Of a DNA stretch of 64,000 nucleotides, positions 5,430-43,591 are shown one piece after another. The DNA comes from Staphylococcus phage LY01: the sequence record OR836606.1. One strand, given 5' to 3'. Under the pieces are notes generated by a model. The model ran no database searches. It had not been told where the DNA came from and was given only the letters and a program-made list of their open reading frames with translations. Position numbers and translations under genes: made by a program. Within the stretch, counting starts at the first letter, position 1, and every line of letters begins with the position of its first letter.

Positions 5430-6398
5430 TTATAAAAATCTTAATCTATATTTAGGTTTAGCTTTATCTTCTTTTCTTTGTCCCGCAACGATATAAGGGT
5501 TACCCGTATTAACTGGATACATTTCATCATAATCTAATTTTATACCCATAGTTGCATTATTAATATTAGCTCTAATAGGTTCAGTTCCAGAAGCATTAGC
5601 TATACTAGTAGACATTGTTGAAACTGAATTAAAGTCAACTAATATATCAGGATTCATATCTTCTTTATATGAATAAGCAAAATTAACTGAAACGTGAGGA
5701 ACTTCTGGGTCATCTCCAATATTTTGTGAGAATATATCATAAGGTACATTTATAGGGAAACATCCAGTATACTTAGAATAATGTAATACAGTTTCACCAT
5801 CAAAGTCTAATAAGAAATAATATATAGAACTAGTATAATCTATATAACGTTTATTTTTAGCATCATCTGAAGGAAATAAATAACCTCTAGTTACGCCTTC
5901 TATATATTCACTCCAAGCTTTAATTAAGTGTATAACATCTATTTCTTTATTTTCTTCAAAATCTACAGCTATTTCTCCACCAGCAACTGAATTAACTGTA
6001 CCTATTGGTAAATGCTGTTTATATCCGTAAAATGTTTCATGAAATTCTTTCATTGTTGTTTGTGTATCGGGAATAGATATCCCCATGAATCTATTTGAAA
6101 GGATTGGGATGAAAGGTCTACCTGAGCTTAAGGCACCGTTATTACTAAAATTTAAGCTTTTTAATAAATCAGGTTTAACTGATCTTAAATAAAGAAAGAA
6201 ACTTTCTCTCCCTATATTTTCTTCTACCAGATTTATTCTAGGTGCTGTTATGAAAATAAAAGGTAATCCTTTATTAAATATTTCTGAATTTTTATCTTTC
6301 ATTCTATATGGATTAAAGGATTTTATTTCTTTTATATCTCCTTCTTCTTTTAATGCTTTTTTAAACTTTTCTTCCGTAGTTTTCTTATCTTCAGCCAA
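5430..6398 (-). CDS. hypothetical protein
   Basis: 322-aa ORF closely following the 995-aa gene on the same strand. Confidence 0.45.
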   Translation of the reverse strand: MAEDKKTTEEKFKKALKEEGDIKEIKSFNPYRMKDKNSEIFNKGLPFIFITAPRINLVEENIGRESFFLYLRSVKPDLLKSLNFSNNGALSSGRPFIPILSNRFMGISIPDTQTTMKEFHETFYGYKQHLPIGTVNSVAGGEIAVDFEENKEIDVIHLIKAWSEYIEGVTRGYLFPSDDAKNKRYIDYTSSIYYFLLDFDGETVLHYSKYTGCFPINVPYDIFSQNIGDDPEVPHVSVNFAYSYKEDMNPDILVDFNSVSTMSTSIANASGTEPIRANINNATMGIKLDYDEMYPVNTGNPYIVAGQRKEDKAKPKYRLRFL

Positions 6399-34873: not shown

Positions 34874-35286
34874 TTATTCTATATAACTTTCTATATCTAC
34901 TTCATTTTGTTTAATTGTCATGTCATGGAAAGATTTCATTGAGCTTGTTACAATAGCTTGAGCCACTTGGTTGACCAGTAGACCAATATTCTCAATTCCT
35001 AATTTATAAGGTAATTCTCCCGCACATTTACTACAAATATCTTCATTAGCACAATACATAGGACTTCTAAACTCTAATACTTTACCCATATAATCATCAA
35101 CATTTTCAGGAGTTAACAAAATTAATTGACCCGATCTCGCATTGTTATCTTTGAAATATCTATACATCATTAATGATGCGTTTGACTTGTCTAATGTCAA
35201 TTTAAGAAAATGATTCGTTCTACAATCCGAACCTTTTTTATCTAAAACTGTTGTTTGAAAGGCTGACATCAATTGCTTGGCTTGAT
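34874..35286 (-). CDS. RNAP beta-prime-like subunit, 3'-terminal exon (interrupted gene; 5' boundary of this exon uncertain, anywhere 35240-35290)
   Basis: GSDCRTNHF aligns to beta-prime EDDCGTHEG. RSPMYCANEDICSKCAG..IENIGLLVNQVAQAIVTSS aligns to beta-prime VRSxxTC..GVCAxCYG..GExIGxIAAQSIGEPGTQ. Confidence 0.6.
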
Positions 35287-35420
35287 CTAATTTAATTTTT
35301 CTGTATTAGTACAATACAGATAAGACTATATCTTCTAATGTAATATATTTAGTCGTTGAACAACTTGTATTAAGTTGATGCTGATTAATCTAATAAGATA
35401 CTTCCAGCAATTAATATTAT
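35287..35420 (-). ncRNA. compact group I intron, copy G (short-5' subfamily), in the beta-prime-like gene; boundaries approximate
   Basis: On the minus strand: P AATTGCTGGAAG (35401-35412), Q TTAATCAGCATCA (35377-35389), R TGTTCAACGACTAAATA (35347-35363), S GATATAGTCT (35323-35332), P9 hairpin CTGTATTGTACTAATACAG (35301-35319). Confidence 0.65.
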
Positions 35421-35456
35421 TTAATGTGAGCATCAAGTTTACCCACCTTCTTGAGT
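35421..35456 (-). CDS. putative micro-exon of the beta-prime-like gene between introns F and G (frame and limits uncertain)
   Basis: In one frame it encodes (Y)SRRWVNLMLTLNNI. This matches the universally conserved beta-prime G(Y)LTRRLVDV segment and the paralog's GYLNRKITLLTSDL. No start codon in that frame. Confidence 0.4.
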
Positions 35457-35633
35457 CATTTATGTTAACTATATTAAAATAATACAGATCAGACTATATC
35501 AAAAACTCTATATGAGCTTAATTATATTTAGTCGTTGAACACTATTTTTAGTGATGCTGATTAACTTAATAAAGGATCTCAGCAATTAATAATTTTTCGT
35601 ATATTATATTACTATAATAAAGGGCATTCATAT
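35457..35633 (-). ncRNA. compact group I intron, copy F (long-5' subfamily with P1 hairpin GGTAT..ATGCC), in the beta-prime-like gene
   Basis: P TTAATTGCTGAGATCC, Q TTAATCAGCATCA, R TGTTCAACGACTAAATA, S GATATAGTCTGATC, P9 CTGTATTATTTTAATATAG, terminal ..TTAACATAAATG (omega-G at 35457). Confidence 0.7.
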
Positions 35634-36431
35634 ACCTAGTGCACGTCCAGCTGAACCAGCAGTCATGACATCTCCAAACATATAAAGTTCATTAGGATCA
35701 ATTCCTTCAGCTAGTGAGCTTTTAGCAATTCTAATTTTACTTGGATCAGCAAAGTTTTTATTGGCTCCACGAATCAATGCAGTTAATTTATAGTTATTAC
35801 CGAATGAACCACGTGAACCACTATCATAAATATCTAAATCGGCTAAACCTTTTAATTCTTCTTTACTTAATTTAATTAATTCTTTTTCAATAGCAGATAT
35901 TGCGTTTAATTCTTCTCCAGAAGTATTCAACTCTTTTTCATATTTAACTAATAATTCTTCTTTCTTTTGTTTAACCTTATCAGTAGCAGTCATCATTGTA
36001 GTAGTTAAACTAGAATTAATAAAACTAGCTATAGAGAATCCTAACCATTGTAATTTATCAATGTAATCTGACATTTCTTGTGTAGTAATAATATCATTGA
36101 GTAATAAGTTTGATAAATCAGATTGAAGCTTACCAATTCCAGAACCACCCATATCGTGATTCATATATCCTATAATTGGCCCAATTTTATTATCTAAAAT
36201 AAATTTATTAAATATATATCTACCTACAGTAGTCTTTTCATCTTTTTTATTATAAACTAAATCTTTTTTTAATGTAAATTTATCTGATGGATTATACATT
36301 GGTTCTGTATTCTGTCTAAAGGCAAATAATTCTTTTAACTTGTCTAATGTAATATCATCTTTACCAACACTTAATAATGTAGATACTTCTTTTTCGTTAA
36401 GTGTTTTATTCTCATAATTCATATTAGCCAA
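35634..36431 (-). CDS. RNAP beta-prime-like subunit, C-terminal gene segment (first exon of interrupted gene; own ATG start)
   Basis: EGIDPNELYMFGDVMTAGSAGRALG aligns to beta-prime [25 protein letters not shown] (trigger-loop region). Minus-strand ORF 35628..36431 from the track. Confidence 0.65.
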
Positions 36432-36970
36432 TTTATTTTCACTTCTTTCATTATTTTATTCATATTTAGATGTTATTGAGCATTTTATAATTTTTATATA
36501 ATTAAACAATGTATATGAAGTTAATAGTTATTTTTATATTAAATATTTAATTGTATTAATTTAATAAAGATAATATAAATAGTCAATGATTTATATTAAA
36601 TTAATATAAATTACAGAAATAAATTATGTAAAAACTATAAATTTTTATAATTATGTGATAAAAAATTTGAAAATGCCCGGAATATTATAATTATATTATA
36701 ATAAAATTATAATAATAAATATATTATTCTTATAATATATTTATATAAATTAAAATATTATGAGGGGATAGTACACATTTTTATTTCATAAAAATGTATT
36801 AAGAAAATAACGAACGAAGTGAGTTATTTTATTTATATAAATCCAATTAAAATACATAACAATAATAATCAAAACTATTGTATATAGGAAATTTATTGAA
36901 TAATATTATAAAATAAAAATAATATAAATATATTAATCAATAAAATTAAATACGGAAAGGAATGGCATAA
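36432..36970. promoter_or_regulatory. ~540-bp extremely AT-rich divergent intergenic region between the two intron-containing RNAP genes (probable divergent promoters)
   Basis: No ORF. Long runs of ATAATATAAATA-type repeats. Flanked by the starts of the minus-strand beta-prime-like and plus-strand beta-like genes. Confidence 0.3.
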
Positions 36971-38560
36971 TTGAAATATCTTAATAGATTAAAAAATCTT
37001 AAATTCTATTCAATATCTGGATATAAAATTAAAGCTATTGATGAAGAAATCGAAGATAAGAAAAAAGATCAGTTAGTTATTTATAAAGGTTTTAAAGAAA
37101 ATTCATTTACTGATTTTTTAAATAGTGGATTATTATATCATCAGAATTTTAAGAATATCTATATTCCGAGATTGTATAGAACTAGAAATAGAAGAACTAG
37201 ATTATTAACAAATATAACAGATTATCAAAAAGAGATTAAATCTAAATCTTACAAACAGTATAGAGTTGAAAGAAATGAGAAATTATTTAAAGGTAGAAAC
37301 TATATTGTTGATTCAACTAAATTTATTGATTTAGAAGATAAATCATTAATAACTAGAAATTTTAATACAGTATTGGATTCAATTAAATCAACTTTTAATT
37401 CTTTAAATAATGCAGAAGATTACAATAATTTATTATATGTAATTAATGTTGATGGGTATAATAAGTCTTCTCAAGAAGCAATTAGACCTAATACAAAAGA
37501 TTTCATGTCAAGCTTATTCATGATGATTAAGAATCAAGAGGAATTACCTCATGGTGAAAATCAAAATATTAATTTATTATTTGTCTCATTAGATAATGGA
37601 ATAATGTTTAAATTTGATTATAAAGATTATAATAAACTTAATATGAGACTTAGACAAAGATTAAGAAGAATCATTGATACTAATACACAAGCATTAGATA
37701 CTGATGAAATTAGTAAAGTTGAAGATGATGACAATACTGAAGCTGTAGATGGAGTAATTAAAAAGAAAGCATTTGATAATGTAGGAACAATTGATCCTAT
37801 CGAAGCTCAGAACGATGAAGCTGAATATGAAAATGATGAACAGTTAGAAAAAATATCTAATAAAATAGATTCTACAATAAGTTATATTAGATCATTAGAC
37901 AATACTGAAATGGATGTTGATGATGAATATAATATAGCTATGATAATTGAAAAAGAATTAAATAATAATAAAGATTTAATTGATATTGATACTGAAACAT
38001 TATATTCGGATGTATTGGATAAAAATGATTCATTTAAATCAATTAAGAGAAATATTAAAAATAAATCTAGTATTGGCGATGAAGCACTTAAAAATACTAA
38101 AAAGATATTAGCTTTATCCAAGAAACAAGATGAATACCTTAATGATTTAGAGGATTTTAGCTTTTCTGAAGATAAATTAATCGATAGAGAAATTAATGAA
38201 AATATTAATAATATTAATGAAGAGACTATTAATAATATTGCTTCTAATGATTTTGATGTTTCTTATATGCAAAAAACATTTAATAAAGACTTTATTGATA
38301 TAATGAAAAGCTTTAATGACAATGAAGATATTCCGGTATTTATTAATAAAATGAATATTGAAGATAATTCAGATAGTCAATCATTAAAAAATACAGTTAA
38401 AGTTCAATTTAGAAGTCCAGACGGTTTAACTCATAATGTTAAATTTGATGTTCCTAAAGTTATTGACGGTAAGTACATGAAGCTTAACGGTGGGAAAAAG
38501 ATATTAACTAAACAGTTAATGATGTGGCCAATCGTTAAATATAAACCGGATTGTTCATAA
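36971..38560 (+). CDS. RNAP beta-like subunit, exon 1 (N-terminal part; TTG start per ORF track; true exon end probably at a U within 38551-38557)
   Basis: C-terminal KYMKLNGGKKILTKQLMMWPIVKYKPD aligns to RpoB [25 protein letters not shown]. Confidence 0.6.
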   Translation: MKYLNRLKNLKFYSISGYKIKAIDEEIEDKKKDQLVIYKGFKENSFTDFLNSGLLYHQNFKNIYIPRLYRTRNRRTRLLTNITDYQKEIKSKSYKQYRVERNEKLFKGRNYIVDSTKFIDLEDKSLITRNFNTVLDSIKSTFNSLNNAEDYNNLLYVINVDGYNKSSQEAIRPNTKDFMSSLFMMIKNQEELPHGENQNINLLFVSLDNGIMFKFDYKDYNKLNMRLRQRLRRIIDTNTQALDTDEISKVEDDDNTEAVDGVIKKKAFDNVGTIDPIEAQNDEAEYENDEQLEKISNKIDSTISYIRSLDNTEMDVDDEYNIAMIIEKELNNNKDLIDIDTETLYSDVLDKNDSFKSIKRNIKNKSSIGDEALKNTKKILALSKKQDEYLNDLEDFSFSEDKLIDREINENINNINEETINNIASNDFDVSYMQKTFNKDFIDIMKSFNDNEDIPVFINKMNIEDNSDSQSLKNTVKVQFRSPDGLTHNVKFDVPKVIDGKYMKLNGGKKILTKQLMMWPIVKYKPDCS

Positions 38561-38589
38561 CAGTCCACTTTTATAGCAATATGAAAGTA

Positions 38590-38730
38590 AAAAGAATATT
38601 AATTGCTGAAACGGTTTTATTAAATTAATCAGCATCAATTATTATTAATTGTTCAACGACTAAATATATTCACTCTTATTGAGAGTATGATATAGTCTGT
38701 GCTCTAAATTGATAATTTAGAGATTGTATA
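38590..38730 (+). ncRNA. group I intron core, copy E (5' ribozyme moiety of an IStron-like element) in the beta-like gene
   Basis: P TTAATTGCTGAAACGG (38599-), Q TTAATCAGCATCA (38625-37), R TGTTCAACGACTAAATA (38651-67), S GATATAGTCT (38689-98), P9-like TGTATAAAATACAG (38715-28). Confidence 0.7.
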
Positions 38731-38803
38731 AAATACAGATAAAAAATTCATATCAGAATTTCTCTTAACATATTTTTATAATATGATTAGGAGGTGAAAT
38801 TAA

Positions 38804-40006
38804 ATGATAAACAAAAACGGAAAATTAGTTAAATCTTTCAAAACTAGAATATACCCAAATCAAGATCAAATAAATTATTTCAATAAATGTTTTGGTGTAA
38901 GAAGAAAAATATGGAATATGGCTTTAGAAGACTATCAAAATAAAGATGATGACGCTCAATTTAGCGGATTTGATTATCAGAAAAAATTAAATAATGAAAT
39001 TTATGAATCTGGTAAATATCCCTATCTTTATGAAGTTAATAGCATGGTTAGACAAGAAGCTTTAAAAGACTTAGATGAATCTTTTAAAATATATAGAAAT
39101 GAACAAAAGAAAGCTAGAAAGTCTAAAGATGCAATTGACACTGAAAAATTTAAACCCAAGTTTAAAAAGAAAAAACATTCTAATGAGTCATTTAGATTTA
39201 TGGTTAAAGATAAGAAATATTTACCTATTAGATTTTTATCTAAGAAATGGATAAAAATTTCCGTAATGAAAGGAATTAAACCTTTTATAATCAAATCTAA
39301 AGAATCAATGAAGTTTATTAATTCTAATAACCATAGATTTCTCACTTACACTATAAGCAGAAAGAATGAAAAATATTATATTTCTGTAACTTATGAGATA
39401 AACAATTATAAGAAACAGAGATTGAATAATGATTCAATTGGTATTGATATGGGTATGAAAACACCATTAGTATGTGTAGATTCAAATGGTCAAACATTTG
39501 AATTTAAAATCCCACATAACTTATGGAAACAAGAAAGAAAAACTGAGAAATTGCAAGCAAAACTATCAAGTAAGAAATATTATTCAAAATCATATTACAA
39601 AACTTTAAAACAATTAAGAAAATCTTATAATAGAGAGTGTAATATATTAGAAGATTATAGAGATAAAATCACTAATTGGTTAGTTAAAAACTATAAAGTG
39701 ATTAATATTGAACCATATAGTCATAAAGCTTCTAATAATTTAAGAAATGCTCGTAGATCTAATAGAAGATTTGGCAAATATGATTTCCTAGAAAAATTAA
39801 AGTATAAGATTTTACAATATGATAATGAATTGAATATAATTACTAAAAAGAAAACTACACAAACATGCTCATCATGCGGTTATGTAAGAACTAACGATGA
39901 GAAACTTGTCATTGGCGATGATATTCATGATTGTCCTAAATGTAATGTAGTTCTTGATAGAGATTTAAATGCGGCTAAAAATATTCTAGATTTAAAATAT
40001 GTTTAA
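38804..40006 (+). CDS. tnpB: TnpB (OMEGA RNA-guided RuvC-like nuclease / IS605 OrfB)
   Basis: N-terminal KTRIYPNQDQINYFNKCFGVRRKIWNMALE. RuvC-I IGIDMGMKT, RuvC-II ..VINIEPY.., zinc finger CSSCGYV..CPKCN, RuvC-III VLDRDLNAAKNIL. 400 aa. Confidence 0.85.
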   Translation: MINKNGKLVKSFKTRIYPNQDQINYFNKCFGVRRKIWNMALEDYQNKDDDAQFSGFDYQKKLNNEIYESGKYPYLYEVNSMVRQEALKDLDESFKIYRNEQKKARKSKDAIDTEKFKPKFKKKKHSNESFRFMVKDKKYLPIRFLSKKWIKISVMKGIKPFIIKSKESMKFINSNNHRFLTYTISRKNEKYYISVTYEINNYKKQRLNNDSIGIDMGMKTPLVCVDSNGQTFEFKIPHNLWKQERKTEKLQAKLSSKKYYSKSYYKTLKQLRKSYNRECNILEDYRDKITNWLVKNYKVINIEPYSHKASNNLRNARRSNRRFGKYDFLEKLKYKILQYDNELNIITKKKTTQTCSSCGYVRTNDEKLVIGDDIHDCPKCNVVLDRDLNAAKNILDLKYV

Positions 40007-40180
40007 TTAATTTCACAAAATAAAAGATATGAGAGTCGCCTGCGGTCAGCGGGAGACGATAAACGGGTGATAAGCTAATGTCTGATTAGCTTTACAAGGA
40101 GTACAGAGGTACCTCTATACGTTAGTCACTGAGCCAAGTGTATTTTATACAAGATCTTGCCTTTAGATTTAATTATTTAA
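40007..40180 (+). ncRNA. putative omega-RNA (reRNA) scaffold at the right end of the TnpB element
   Basis: GC content jumps (GAGAGTCGCCTGCGGTCAGCGGGAGACGATAAACGGGTGATAAGC..) immediately after the tnpB stop. Multiple stems present. The position is typical of IS605-family omega-RNAs. Confidence 0.45.
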
Positions 40181-41571
40181 AATCAAGATTTAACAAGACA
40201 GACAGTATGGATTACAACTAACTATAATAAATTCATTATAGAAAAATTTGGTTATAAAGAAAATGCTGAAACTGAATGGATCAAGAAAGTTATTGAAGAT
40301 GACCAAGTTATAGATTATATTGAAAATAAATCTAACTTATCTGTTAAAAAAGGTAATGCTTCTTTAATCAATAATAAATATGTAACTTCAGTTATTTATA
40401 ATAGCTTATCTAGAAATATATTAAATTTCCAAGATGACACTAATGTACTTGAATTTAATCAAAGAAGTTTATTAGCGATGATTTCTGATAGTGCTAGTTT
40501 ATCTAAAATTGATTATGATCAAGATAAATATTTCCCTATTGGTTATAATATTAATAAATCTAAATTAATATTAGCAGATAAGACAGAATCTGTTATGTAT
40601 GAATGTAGTAAGACTAATATTAAGTCAATGGAAATGAATATATTTGATTACCTTATTGATAAATTAGACAATGAAGTTGACTTTGGTGTTATTGATAAGA
40701 AATTCAGTAAGAATATTCAGGCTAATAAGACTATGGCATTTTCACGTGTTAAAATTACTAATAAATTAGTACCTACAATTTTATTATTAGGTTTCTATAA
40801 AGGTTTAACTAGTATTCTTGATCTTTATGAAGTTGATTATAAATTTACTACTGAGAATGAAAGAATTAGTATTCATGATAAAAAGAATAAAATTAAATTC
40901 CAAGATGGTTATTTAATATACTCTACTGATAAATTAAGATATGATTTATTAATGTCTGGATTAACTGTATTGCCTACATCACAATACAATTTCAGTGATT
41001 TTGAAACTGAAACACCTTACTTAGAATATTTCAATGATAAATTCTACAGTCGTAATGTTGGTAAAGGTATCAAAAATACTATGGATTTAGCAATGGATCC
41101 TATTACTAAAGAAGTATTAAGGGATTTAAAACTTCCTGATAATATGGTTGAATTATTACTATTAGCTAATACGATGTTAGAAGATGTATCAGCTAGAGAT
41201 CATAATGATATGGGAATTTATCGTGTACGTGGCCCAGAACAAATTAATGCATTATTATATAAAATGATGGCAAATGCTTATAAAGAATATTCAGATTCTT
41301 ATAATAATAAAAATCCTAAGAATATTTCAGTTAAACAAGATCAATTAATTAAAACTATTATGGAACAACCTACAGTGGATGAAGTATCTGATTTAAACCC
41401 TAACTTAGAAATAGATAAGATGACTTCTGTTACATTTAAAGGACCTGCTGGACGTAACTCTGAACAATCATATGAACCTGATATTCGTTCTTACGATGAA
41501 AGTATGCAAGGTATATTAGGAATAAGTACACCTGACAGTAATAAGGTAAATTACTTGCCCTTAATTACAGT
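40181..41571 (+). CDS. RNAP beta-like subunit, exon 2 (true 5' splice acceptor somewhere after 40181; ORF track shows only 40478..41578)
   Basis: FSRVKITNKLVPTILLLGFYKGLTSILDLY aligns to RpoB FVRIDRRRKLPATIILRAL..EQILDLF. FKGPAGRN..EPDIRSYDESMQGILGISTPDSNKVNYLPLITV aligns to [41 protein letters not shown]. Confidence 0.6.
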
Positions 41572-41727
41572 AATGTAATTCAATGAAAATTTATTAATTG
41601 CTAAAAATCTTTATTAAGATGATCAGCATCACTAAAAATAGTGTTCAACGACTAAATATAAATTCACTTATTATAAGTGTAAGATATAGTCTAATCTGTA
41701 TTAGATTATTATAGAATAATACAAATG
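41572..41727 (+). ncRNA. compact group I intron, copy A (short-5' subfamily); boundaries +/- a few nt
   Basis: P TTAATTGCTAAAAATC, Q AGATGATCAGCATCA, R TGTTCAACGACTAAATA, P8 CACTTATTATAAGTG, S GATATAGTCTAATC, P9 CTGTATTAGATTATTATAGAATAATACA, terminal AAATG. Confidence 0.7.
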
Positions 41728-41878
41728 AGGTATTGTCAGACAACTTTCATATGATACACAAATTAAATCTACTCGTGGTTATACTGATGGTAGTAAAAAA
41801 GATGTAAGTGATACAGCTTTATACACACCATTAGAATTATTAAATCCATATACTAGTAGACATGCGGATATACGAAAT
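41728..41878 (+). CDS. RNAP beta-like subunit, exon 3 (~50 codons)
   Basis: ..YTPLELLNPYTSRHADIRN aligns to RpoB ..SLIPFLEHDDANRA. The proposed junction gives LPLITV|GIVRQLSYDTQIK. Confidence 0.5.
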
Positions 41879-42034
41879 GAGGTAAGTTCGCAATAAAATT
41901 ATTTAATTGCTGGAAAGCTTTATTAAGTTAATCAGCATCAGTTAAAGACTGTTCAACGACTAAATAATAATTACCATTTATATGGTGAAGATATAGTCTA
42001 ATCTATATTAATTTAATATAGAATAATAAAAATG
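41879..42034 (+). ncRNA. compact group I intron, copy B (short-5' subfamily)
   Basis: P TTAATTGCTGGAAAGC, Q TTAATCAGCATCA, R TGTTCAACGACTAAATA, P8 ACCATTTATATGGT, S GATATAGTCTAATC, P9 CTATATTAATTTAATATAG, terminal AAAAATG. Same 156-nt length as copy A under independent boundary guesses. Confidence 0.7.
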
Positions 42035-42058
42035 TCACCTCGTATAGGAATGACTGGT
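42035..42058 (+). CDS. RNAP beta-like subunit, 8-codon micro-exon 4 (SPRIGMTG)
   Basis: RIGMTG aligns to RpoB RALMGA immediately before the QRQAVP motif. Confidence 0.45.
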
Positions 42059-42242
42059 ATTAAAATGAATGCCCTTTATTATAGTAATATAATATACGAA
42101 AAATATTTAATTGCTAAGAATCTTTAATTAAAGAAATTAGCATCAAATTAATACAATTTGTTCAACGACTAAATAATATTATACTTATTTAAGTATTTGA
42201 TATAGTCTGATCTGTATTAAATTAATACAGTTAACATAAATG
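42059..42242 (+). ncRNA. compact group I intron, copy C (long-5' subfamily with P1 hairpin GGTATT-AAAATG-AATGCC)
   Basis: P TTAATTGCTAAGAATC, Q AATTAGCATCA (compensatory TGCTAA/TTAGCA versus TGCTGG/ATCAGCA in other copies), R TGTTCAACGACTAAATA, P8 ATACTTATTTAAGTAT, S GATATAGTCTGATC, P9 CTGTATTAAATTAATACAG, omega-G at 42242. Confidence 0.75.
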
Positions 42243-42644
42243 ACTCAAGCTAAGCATTTAATTGCTACTAAAACAAATGACCGTCCATTAGTTGGTTCCG
42301 GTGTAGATAAATCTTTAGCCTACCAAATTTCAGACACATTTGCTTTTAAAGCTAAAGAAGATGGAAAAGTAACTTCTATTAATGAGAAAACAGGATTAAT
42401 GATTGTTGAATATATTAATGGAGATAAAGATGTAATTGATATATCTGAAAAACTTGCTAAAAACTCTAATGGCGGATTTTATCAAAATAATAAACTTACA
42501 CCGCAATTTGAAGTAGGTAAGAAATTTAATAAAGGACAAATATTAGCTAAAAATGATAATTACTTTGCAGGTTCTGGTAGTAATAATGATATTCAATTCA
42601 CTGCTGGTAAATTATCTAAAGTTGCAGTAGCTAGCTCATATGGT
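42243..42644 (+). CDS. RNAP beta-like subunit, exon 5 (134 codons, ends on GGU)
   Basis: TQAKHLIATKTNDRPLVGSGVDKSLAYQISDTFAFKAKEDGKV aligns to RpoB [39 protein letters not shown]. ..KLSKVAVASSYG aligns to ..MRVAFMPWNGYN. Confidence 0.65.
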
Positions 42645-42832
42645 ATTATAAATGCCTTTCATTATAGTAATATAATGTATAAAAAATATTTAATTGCTGG
42701 AAAGTCTTTATTAAGACAATCAGCATCATTAATTTATAATGTTCAACGACTAAATAATATTATACTTAATTAATATGTATTTGATATAGTCTAATCTGTA
42801 TTGATTAACTCTTAATGCAGTTAATATAAATG
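42645..42832 (+). ncRNA. compact group I intron, copy D (long-5' subfamily, P1 hairpin GGTATT-ATAA-ATGCC)
   Basis: P TTAATTGCTGGAAAGT, Q ACAATCAGCATCA, R TGTTCAACGACTAAATA, S GATATAGTCTAATC, P9 CTGTATTGATTAACTCTTAATGCAG, terminal TTAATATAAATG (omega-G 42832). Confidence 0.75.
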
Positions 42833-43591
42833 ACTTATGAGGACAGTTCTATTATTTCTAATAGTATGTCTGAAGCTATGTCAACTAAAGTTACTATGAA
42901 GAAAACAGTAAATTTAGCTTCCAATACGAATATTCAATATATTGTAAAAGAAGGTCAAAATGTACGTACAGGAGACCCATTAATGATATTTGAGAATTCA
43001 TTTGATGATGAAGGTATCGGTTCTTTATTAGATAAAATTGGATCTGAATTTGAACAAGAAATCCAAGATATTTCTAATAGAGCTGTTAGATCTAAATATA
43101 CAGGCGTAATTAAGAAAGTAAATATCTATTATAATGATGATATTGAAAATATGTCTCCTACATTAGCTAAATTGGTTAATAGTTATATTAATAAATCTAA
43201 GAATAAATATAAAGAATATAAAAATGCAGTTAAAGGTAACAAATCTACATTACCTGGATTAGATGTAGATATTCCTGCAGTTGAAAAAATCAATAATGAA
43301 AAAATTAAAGGTGAAAAAGTTGATGGTGTTCTTATTGAAATCTTTACAGAATATGAAGATGATATGAGTATCGGTGATAAGATTAGTTTCTATGGGGCGT
43401 GTAAAACGGTCATTGCTGACGTTACTCCACCTGACGAATCCCCTTATGCAGAATATAGACCTGATGAAGAAATTGAAGCTATATTCTCTCCATTAAGTAT
43501 CGTGTCTCGTATGACTACAGATATATATCTCATGTTGTTTACCAATAAAGCACTCATAGAGCTTAAGAGAAAAGTTAAAGATATGCTTTAA
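42833..43591 (+). CDS. RNAP beta-like subunit, exon 6 (in frame with exon 5 when joined GGU|ACU)
   Basis: TYEDSSIISNS aligns to RpoB NFEDSILVSER. The join gives ..SSYG|TYEDSSII. Confidence 0.65.
   Translation, partial: TYEDSSIISNSMSEAMSTKVTMKKTVNLASNTNIQYIVKEGQNVRTGDPLMIFENSFDDEGIGSLLDKIGSEFEQEIQDISNRAVRSKYTGVIKKVNIYYNDDIENMSPTLAKLVNSYINKSKNKYKEYKNAVKGNKSTLPGLDVDIPAVEKINNEKIKGEKVDGVLIEIFTEYEDDMSIGDKISFYGACKTVIADVTPPDESPYAEYRPDEEIEAIFSPLSIVSRMTTDIYLMLFTNKALIELKRKVKDML

Follow-up and report, generated by a model that had tools for sequence, protein, structure and literature searches.

A family of compact, probable group I introns, one of them IStron-like and carrying tnpB, interrupts two genes for RNA polymerase subunits in a Staphylococcus jumbo phage

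Results

Seven related insertions interrupt two RNA polymerase genes

The locus described here lies in a stretch of 64,000 nucleotides (nt) from Staphylococcus phage LY01 (sequence record OR836606.1), a jumbo phage of the AR9/S6 type. This 64 kb is referred to as the window throughout, and the analysis was computational, carried out on the sequence. Two divergently transcribed genes in the window, for the beta subunit and for the middle domain of the beta-prime subunit of the virion RNA polymerase, are broken up by seven members of one family of insertions, which we call introns A to G. Among Staphylococcus jumbo phages, the region was 94-95% identical to Madawaska, S6, DC4, PALS_2 and MarsHill, and its identity to AH12, Machias and PB50 was about 82%; these relatives are AR9-like phages with two multisubunit RNA polymerases. 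The Madawaska homologues of the two genes are annotated as 'viral RNA polymerase beta subunit' and 'viral RNA polymerase beta-prime subunit, mid-domain', and the last exon of the beta gene matches the Pfam family RNA_pol_Rpb2_6 (1.3e-8). We identify the genes by this annotation and this match, because the full-length S6 beta (1417 amino acids, L002:4414-8664) and beta-prime proteins, when searched against Pfam, returned no family.

In S6 both genes are uninterrupted, with 4254 nt for beta and 1227 nt for beta-prime, and the ends of the insertions were set by aligning the window to these S6 alleles. The beta-prime gene runs on the minus strand and contains two introns. Its exon 1 (35634..36431) is followed by intron B (35457-35633, 177 nt), a micro-exon of 16 nt (ACTCAAGAAGGTGGGT, 35441..35456, matching S6 L002:3139-3154), intron A (35287-35440, 154 nt) and exon 3 (34874..35286). 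The beta gene runs on the plus strand and contains the other five: exon 1 (36971..38551), intron C (38552-40201, 1650 nt, at a point where the S6 sequence is continuous, position 5994 being followed by 5995), exon 2 (40202..41547), intron D (41548-41727, 180 nt), exon 3 (41728..41869), intron E (41870-42034, 165 nt), a micro-exon of 24 nt encoding SPRIGMTG (42035..42058), intron F (42059-42242, 184 nt), exon 5 (42243..42644), intron G (42645-42832, 188 nt) and exon 6 (42833..43591). A sequence-only reading of the window, made before this analysis, had already reported seven copies of the repeat as group I introns fragmenting these two genes, and its 3' ends were right for six of them. Four of its 5' ends have to be moved outward, for A from 35420 to 35440, for C from 38590 to 38552, for D from 41572 to 41548 and for E from 41879 to 41870. 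The length of exon 5, which it gave as 402 nt, is exact.

The family is real and is complete at seven copies in the window. The 15-mer GTTCAACGACTAAAT, the R motif of the repeat, occurs exactly seven times, at all of the places reported and nowhere else, against 0.2 occurrences expected by chance, and the S and P blocks are found alongside these copies. A hidden Markov model (HMM) built from 33 family members and run with nhmmer --max returned these seven only (E <= 3.5e-19) and nothing further in the 64 kb at E <= 10. The P9 hairpin, the ..AAATG terminus and the four conserved blocks (P, Q, R and S) are present as earlier described, except that the labels box 9R and box 9R' had been swapped, a minor matter.

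Removing the insertions restores both proteins, as the sequence-only reading had proposed on partial alignments. The six beta exons join into 1417 amino acids that align without gaps to S6 BDE75638 (97.5% identity), and the three beta-prime exons into 408 amino acids that align without gaps to S6 BDE75639 (96.3%). The 16-nt micro-exon is required to restore the sequence ..GTQEGGYQ.. in beta-prime; six of its bases double as the P1 strand of the downstream intron A. The junctions fall in phases 0, 2, 0, 0 and 0 in beta and 0 and 1 in beta-prime. Because each intron in the window contains in-frame stop codons (between 4 and 14, with seven in intron A), translation through the introns is excluded. 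The same junctions bear on the idea that the insertions are never removed, such that the polymerase genes would be truly split, their pieces translated separately, and the repeat would be an intergenic regulatory or recombination element. Several pieces do start with ATG, and jumbo-phage RNA polymerase subunits are naturally encoded in several genes (PMC7598289). Yet the exons of only 16 and 24 nt are too short to be genes, two of the junctions lie inside codons (phases 1 and 2), in the sequence inspected an obvious ribosome-binding site is found at the TnpB open reading frame (ORF) of intron C only, and the apparent start codons are conserved intron termini; ORFs at 42240 and 42830 begin at such an intron-terminal ATG, an artefact that had been foreseen. 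Moreover, in S6 and DC4 each of these proteins is encoded by a single ORF, DC4 having gene lengths equal to those of the intron-free S6 form (PMC10638138), and the covariation described below is the pattern of an RNA structure. We regard a true split of the genes as extremely improbable.

The interval between the two genes (36440-36970) is extremely AT-rich, the bin at 36001-38000 having about 20% GC, and probably holds the beta and beta-prime promoters.

Splice sites and the P1 helix

At all seven introns the 5' exon ends in U and the intron ends in G. For introns A and D the boundary can slide by one base, and the placement chosen is the one with U at -1 and G at the end, which for intron A gives the junctions GUGGGU|AAAC.. 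and ..AAAUUAG|AUCAAG. Introns B, D, E, F and G all end in ..AAAUG, and all seven 5' flanks end in GGT or GAT. In every copy the end of the exon pairs with an internal guide sequence to form a P1 helix of 5-8 base pairs (bp) with a U.G pair at the cut site, and the guide changes along with the exon. GGU pairs with GCC in B, D, F and G (extended to GGUAA/UUGCC in D), GCGGAU with GUUCGC across a 16-nt loop in E, and GUGGGU with GCUCAC in A. In intron C the guide compensates a G-to-A change in the exon, the pairing being GGAU/GUCC in the window and AGAU/GUCU in a Machias copy of the same intron.

The sequence-only reading had divided the family into two groups by an additional 5' segment. This division does not survive, since P1 is present in every copy and the segment is the 3' strand of P1 together with a P2 hairpin with a GNRA loop, which is found in B (UAUUAUA-GUAA-UAUAAUA), C, D (AAUUACA-GUAA-UGUAAUU), F and G and is absent from A and E. 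Of note, intron B in beta-prime and intron F in beta occupy the same 10-nt target, GGT|ACTCAAG, and have nearly identical P1 and P2 elements, which suggests that one intron moved between the two genes.

Covariation points to a group I core

To examine the core we used the 33 family copies (7 from the window, 24 from AH12 and one each from Madawaska and Machias, with AH12 and Machias represented by parts of their genomes). Base pairs were counted in registers that are fixed by the invariant blocks, with no fitting, and the same counts in slid registers served as control. P3 was paired at 89% in the true register as compared to 32-64% in slid ones, P4 at 99% as compared to 16-65%, and P6 at 96% as compared to 22-52%. 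Up to four types of base pair occur per position in P3 and P6, with four types at four of the five positions of P6. In a column-shuffle control, P3 was 98% paired against 62% and P6 95% against 66%, and none of 300 shuffles reached the observed level. Over the whole padded alignment, in which the fitted helices P5, P8 and P9 were counted too, compensatory double changes were found in 32 of 47 pairs. The change of TGCTAA/TTAGCA in the copy at 42059, singled out in the sequence-only reading, is a genuine compensatory change in P4 of intron F (UGCUAA/UUAGCA).

The remaining elements are consistent with the same fold. P7 (GACU/AGUC with a bulged C, and an A-U pair) and the joining segments J6/7 and J8/7 are invariant in all 33 copies, and the order of strands, P3-P4-P5-P6-P7-P3'-P8-P7'-P9, is that of the group I pseudoknot between P3 and P7. 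P8 and P9 keep their place while their sequence changes from copy to copy with few exceptions (26 different 5' arms for P8 and 29 for P9), and their hairpins are stronger than those of shuffled sequences, with a mean z of about 2.2. P2, a stem of 6-9 bp with a GNRA loop at a fixed distance of 12-15 nt from the P3/P4 block, is present in 20 of the 33 copies as compared to 1.5% of shuffles. When six copies were aligned with MAFFT and folded with RNAalifold, P4, P5, P7, P8 and P9 were recovered; P3 and P6 were missed because the loops were misaligned. Finally, all 33 copies lie in sense orientation to the host gene, within gaps between same-strand ORF fragments, including those of nrdE and other RNA polymerase genes in AH12.

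Three other types of intervening sequence were considered and rejected. An intein is incompatible with the 4-14 in-frame stops and with three intron lengths that are not multiples of 3. A group II intron would require domains I-VI and a ribozyme length of at least about 600 nt, for which 154-188 nt are too short, and the core is of the group I type. Translational bypassing was dismissed on account of the in-frame stops, the size, the codon phases and the micro-exons.

Several observations weigh against assigning these elements to group I. The Rfam model Intron_gpI (RF00028) gave no match at its gathering score in the whole window and nothing at E <= 10 when run on the 8-kb region; it likewise misses the relatives and the IMG/VR loci described below at the gathering score. 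Intron F searched alone reached 15.2 bits against a threshold of 50, so that the check proposed in the sequence-only reading came out negative. The alignment behind this score (E 0.095, model positions 57-150) is collinear through P4, P5, P6, J6/7 and P7. P5, which the sequence-only reading had included in the skeleton, has 3-5 bp in the window copies, of which five reach 5 bp, and there its loop is mostly UAUU. Across the family P5 is unsupported: its best hairpin is no better than shuffles (z 0.33, 33 copies), and it is missing altogether from several AH12 copies. P1-like helices of at least 6 bp with a U.G pair are also reached at 27% of control T positions in this AT-rich DNA, and P1 tested by its length was not significant against such positions. 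Because helices of this kind are common by chance, the support for P1 lies in its constant position and in compensation, not in its length. Copies of about 20% GC that lack P2 and P8 may, furthermore, need a protein to fold or splice, and the excision of all seven introns is itself deduced from sequence. Set against these points is the agreement of the insertion boundaries, the splice-site rules, the covariation of the core, the sense orientation and the in-frame stops, which together support the group I reading. We therefore consider it very probable that the seven elements are group I introns and are spliced out of the virion RNA polymerase beta and beta-prime genes. That all seven would do so unaided is less sure.

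According to this model, each gene would be transcribed together with its introns, and each intron would fold to a reduced core consisting of P1, the P3/P7 pseudoknot, P4, P6 and P9, together with a weak P5 and, as optional parts, P8 and a P2 capped by a GNRA loop. The intron would then remove itself by two guanosine-initiated transesterifications, with the first cut after the terminal U of the exon, which is paired with G in P1, and the second after the terminal G of the intron. The exons would thereby be rejoined, the micro-exons of 16 and 24 nt included.

How far the introns are reduced

The six introns without an ORF (A, B, D, E, F and G) are 154-188 nt long, with a GC content of 18.5-24%. 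Between P3' and J8/7, every copy has at most one hairpin, P8, and no extras. Because the extra hairpins between P3' and P8 are lacking, the core is not of the standard IA2 type. Intron A goes further, with 14 nt between R and S and hence no P8, a form that recurs in two AH12 copies at other sites.

Such reduction raises the question of whether these introns splice by themselves. They may descend from group I introns whose ribozyme has shrunk so much that this ability is lost, and be removed only when a protein of the phage or the host, for example a maturase or an RNA chaperone, assists. This would fit the 154 nt of intron A without P8, the chance-level P5 over 33 copies, the low GC content and Rfam scores far under the threshold. 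It fits less well with the invariance, in the same 33 copies, of J6/7, the P7 bulge, J8/7, the P3/P7 pseudoknot, the U.G pair and the terminal G, and with the occurrence of P8-less copies at three different sites, which suggests that they work. Engineered sunY mini-ribozymes of about 180 nt, moreover, stay active. We consider an obligatory helper possible but rather doubtful, and continue to favour group I introns that act as ribozymes.

The sequence-only reading had placed the whole family at or below the size of the smallest known natural group I introns. This is plausible for A (154 nt) and E (165 nt) and does not hold for the others. The Azoarcus tRNA-Ile group I intron has 205 nt. Our literature search returned no citable statement of the smallest group I intron; a recent survey of bacterial tRNA group I introns gives a range of 184-894 nt (PMC13011429), and introns A, E and B (177 nt) fall below its minimum of 184 nt.

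Intron C combines a compact core with tnpB

The copy that had been placed at 38590-38730 is in fact the 1650-nt intron C, and the description of the family as compact and free of ORFs, which stands for the other six, fails here. At its 5' end, from 38552 to about 38723 on the plus strand, intron C has a compact group I core, P1 to P9. Immediately downstream, the 14 nt at 38724..38737 (UUGUAUAAAAUACA) are the exact reverse complement of 40139-40152 (UGUAUUUUAUACAA), and the 14-bp helix predicted from this match would close a loop containing the ORF. In the two Machias copies of intron C, the 3' arm of the helix is identical, and the 5' arm has two or three changes at its loop end in one (L124, UUGUAUAAAAUAUU) and a single change in the other (L128). 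The ORF, at 38804..40006, is preceded by its own ribosome-binding site (AGGAGGTG) and encodes a 400-amino-acid TnpB (OrfB of IS200/IS605) with the Pfam matches HTH_OrfB_IS605, OrfB_IS605 and Cas12f1-like_TNB. It matches ISDra2 TnpB (8bf8/8exa) with an E of 1.8e-19. Its catalytic-type motifs GIDMG, NIEPY and LDRDLNAA align with GVDLG, AVEDL and HDRDENAA of a TnpB-like nuclease (9yyg), and the zinc-finger cysteines are retained as two CxxC pairs; by these features the protein is apparently intact.

Between the ORF and the intron's 3' end lies a candidate for the scaffold of the TnpB guide (omega) RNA, at 40010..40201 on the plus strand. Its first part (40010-40140) has 43.5% GC, as compared to about 25% locally, and is followed by the last 60 nt of intron C. 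The segment is nearly identical in the window and in both Machias copies (L124:4465-4656 and L128:2601-2794), as compared to an identity of about 86-87% for the ORF; in the segment, one hairpin is preserved through compensatory changes (GUACAGAGG..CCUCUAUAC as compared to GUGAGAAGG..CCUUCUCAC), and the folding z-score is -2.43. No Rfam family matched 40010-40201. From its composition, conservation and compensated hairpin, the segment probably serves as the guide-RNA scaffold, with the guide read from the 3' exon starting at 40202. It would then compete with the fold of the intron's 3' end, as has been described for IStrons, composite elements in which a group I intron is joined to an insertion sequence.

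The complete element, with the same ends, is also present at two sites in Machias, L124:3004-4656 between gp207 and gp209 and L128:1142-2794 next to gyrB. The three 5' flanks, CGGAT in window beta, TAGAT at gp207/209 and CGGAT at gyrB, conform to YRGAT, and the 3' exons are unrelated. Machias has three tnpB genes, annotated merely as 'transposase'. Together, these features point to an IStron-like element, in which a predicted ribozyme and tnpB form one unit whose ends are the splice sites. Three points count against this assignment: the YRGAT flank is based on three sites; TnpA is missing from the element and from the window, tnpB being the only ORF of at least 60 amino acids in the element with a Pfam match; and the uninterrupted S6 allele mismatches the putative guide at two of its first six positions. 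Were the element to act like an IStron, its TnpB would cleave alleles that lack the intron and in which YRGAT precedes the matching exon (ACAGTATGGATTACAAC), for example in a co-infecting phage, and repair from the intron-bearing copy would spread or retain intron C.

The exon bases flanking intron C (38546-38551 and 40202-40207) differ from the empty S6 and Madawaska alleles (L002:5989-6000) at synonymous positions only. The window reads CCG GAT|ACA GTA where the empty alleles read CCT GAT/GAC|ACT GTT, and the G at -4 is needed for P1; in S6 the empty site is CCTGAT followed by ACTGTTTGG... These differences could represent a co-conversion tract or a resistance of the empty alleles to cleavage.

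Relatives carry the family at shared and at different sites

A BLAST search with intron F returned 81 places in five Staphylococcus jumbo phages, among them DNA polymerase, prohead protease and RNA polymerase genes. AH12 has introns at five of the window sites too (A, B, E, F and G), at the B site one at L003:3093-3322 on the minus strand and at the G site one at L003:8263-8495, and the E site is occupied in Madawaska (L001) as well. S6 carries none of the seven introns, and the DC4 gene lengths fit an intron-free form. Searching IMG/VR with the family HMM yielded 41 near-full-length and equally compact cores in 11 loci, on contigs of 28-384 kb; a strict P..Q..R..S pattern, applied to 120 IMG/VR loci, had found none of these copies. 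The matches are numerous, with up to 17 per 14-kb locus, on contigs of 230-384 kb (L036, L037, L044, L047, L066, L078, L084 and L100). Judging by these HMM matches, other uncultivated jumbo phages bear the same compact core at high density.

In AH12, the family also occurs in unusual arrangements. Three copies stand in tandem within about 700 nt (L127:35603-36291), between same-strand ORFs beside an rpoB fragment; six copies are found in a terminase-like region (L125:11072-17649), and nrdE is split by a single copy (L126:9970-10201). The AH12 intron at the F site runs into an annotated ORF of 97 amino acids, WNX97846.1 (L003:7649-8340). This ORF may be a homing endonuclease, in which case some family members at these sites carry ORFs.

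How the introns came to their sites is a separate question from how they leave the RNA. The ORF-less copies might be mainly derivatives of a DNA transposon, mini IStrons or relics of IS200/IS605 elements that inserted via a short target motif, with intact alleles arising from precise DNA excision instead of being the ancestral state; splicing would still be needed for such insertions to be tolerated. Intron C occurs at three unrelated sites after YRGAT, all seven window flanks end in one of two trinucleotides, and an ORF-less AH12 copy (L125:17416-17649) shares the termini of C, ..CGAT| and ..AAGACAG|. For IStrons, derivatives in which the ORFs have been lost are on record (PMC4227781). By contrast, a gene for TnpA is missing from the element and from anywhere in the window, introns B, D, E, F and G have a different 3' end, and the strictly sense orientation of all 33 copies speaks against transposition as the main route; the five sites common to the window and AH12 fit homing or vertical inheritance equally well. 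On balance we judge a transposon origin of most ORF-less copies unlikely, and retain group I introns as the description of the family.

A bolder proposal may be set beside this one. Introns A and E, together with the AH12 copies that have no P8, may splice entirely by themselves, which would make them the smallest natural group I ribozymes known, without P2 or P8, with a vestigial P5 and at about 20% GC. At the same time, the whole family may be an IStron-lineage radiation in jumbo phages, in which TnpB, with a guide RNA overlapping the intron 3' end, serves as the homing nuclease between phages in co-infection, and the ORF-less mini-introns are its non-autonomous derivatives. We offer this combined proposal tentatively and think it more doubtful than not.

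Discussion

Much of the setting was known before, and the sequence-only reading rated the novelty of the locus too highly. The intron-split genes of this clade (Korn et al.), dense small introns of jumbo phages (the Jug phages), and TnpB-only as well as phage-borne IStrons have all been published. What is new is the definition of the family with its exact ends and structure, the forms of 154-165 nt that lack P2 or P8, the micro-exon arrangement, and an IStron variant built on a compact core without P7.1/P7.2.

These results have immediate consequences for annotation. Standard pipelines break both essential genes into false small ORFs, and Rfam misses the introns; the exon map corrects this for the window, and a family-specific model would do likewise for relatives. 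Natural and 154-188 nt long, with P2, P8 and perhaps P5 missing from some members, the introns also offer a comparative series for the minimal size of a natural group I ribozyme. In intron C, in turn, TnpB is combined with a ribozyme that is not of type IA2, and the host is a lytic jumbo phage whose close relatives S6 and DC4 offer empty sites, so that RNA-guided intron homing during co-infection is directly testable in culturable phages.

Comparison with known introns and IStrons

With the smallest natural group I introns, the introns of the window share a minimal P1-P9 fold, short P5 and P6, and few peripheral elements. They differ in residing in protein-coding genes, in being far more AT-rich, and in that some lack P2 and P8.

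Classical phage group I introns are likewise sense insertions in essential conserved genes, as in td, nrdB and sunY of T4, the DNA polymerase of SPO1, and orf142 (three introns) and nrdE (two) of Twort. They have in common with the introns described here the U.G pair at the 5' splice site, the terminal G, the P/Q/R/S core and the P3/P7 pseudoknot, as well as the occurrence of several introns per gene and polymorphic presence among related phages. Unlike the classical examples, the present family has no P7.1/P7.2 between P3 and P8, sometimes lacks P2 or P8, has a GC content of about 20%, escapes Rfam, and is without a homing endonuclease gene in six of seven cases. Classical phage group I introns without an ORF have about 250 nt or more, as compared to roughly 150-190 nt here.

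Among AR9-like phages, the introns of Bacillus phage AR9 itself were reportedly mapped experimentally by Lavysh et al. in 2016. Within the clade of the window, introns in MarsHill, Madawaska and Machias were predicted from protein alignments only (Korn et al., bioRxiv 10.1101/2020.12.14.422802, as far as the accessible text goes). In that part of the text, the genes concerned are the same (virion and non-virion RNA polymerase, DNA polymerase, prohead protease, terminase and gyrB) and intron content varies between phages; the intron class, structure, exact ends, family relationship and size, which are given here, do not appear in it.

The closest parallel in density comes from the Jug jumbo phages of the gut, which have on average 18.5 group I introns per genome, of about 206 nt, splitting essential genes, and for which metatranscriptome reads supported splicing of 37 of 76 introns (PMC12880540). 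The present family belongs to another host and phage clade, consists of shorter copies (154-188 nt), has one member fused to TnpB, and is known from sequence alone.

IStrons, finally, consist of a group I intron and an IS200/IS605 or IS607 element, as in CdISt1, BcISt1 and CboIStron, and their TnpB guide RNA overlaps the intron 3' end and takes its guide from the downstream exon (PMC4227781; bioRxiv 10.1101/2023.11.20.567912; PMC13565253). TnpB-only IStrons are a described variant (PMC4227781), and phage-borne IStrons are known from c-st and D-1873. Intron C resembles these elements in its succession of 5' ribozyme, tnpB and a structured RNA reaching up to the 3' splice site, in the coincidence of element ends and splice sites, in its presence at unrelated sites after a short motif ending in GAT, and in a 3' end, ..ACAG, that is similar to the group A ending TCAG. 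It differs from them in that the published ribozymes are all of type IA2, whereas the core of C is much smaller and without P7.1/P7.2, and in its flank, YRGAT instead of TTGAT, ATTAT or TTTAT. Its host, moreover, is a Staphylococcus jumbo phage, and intron C belongs to a family that is dominated by ORF-less mini-introns.

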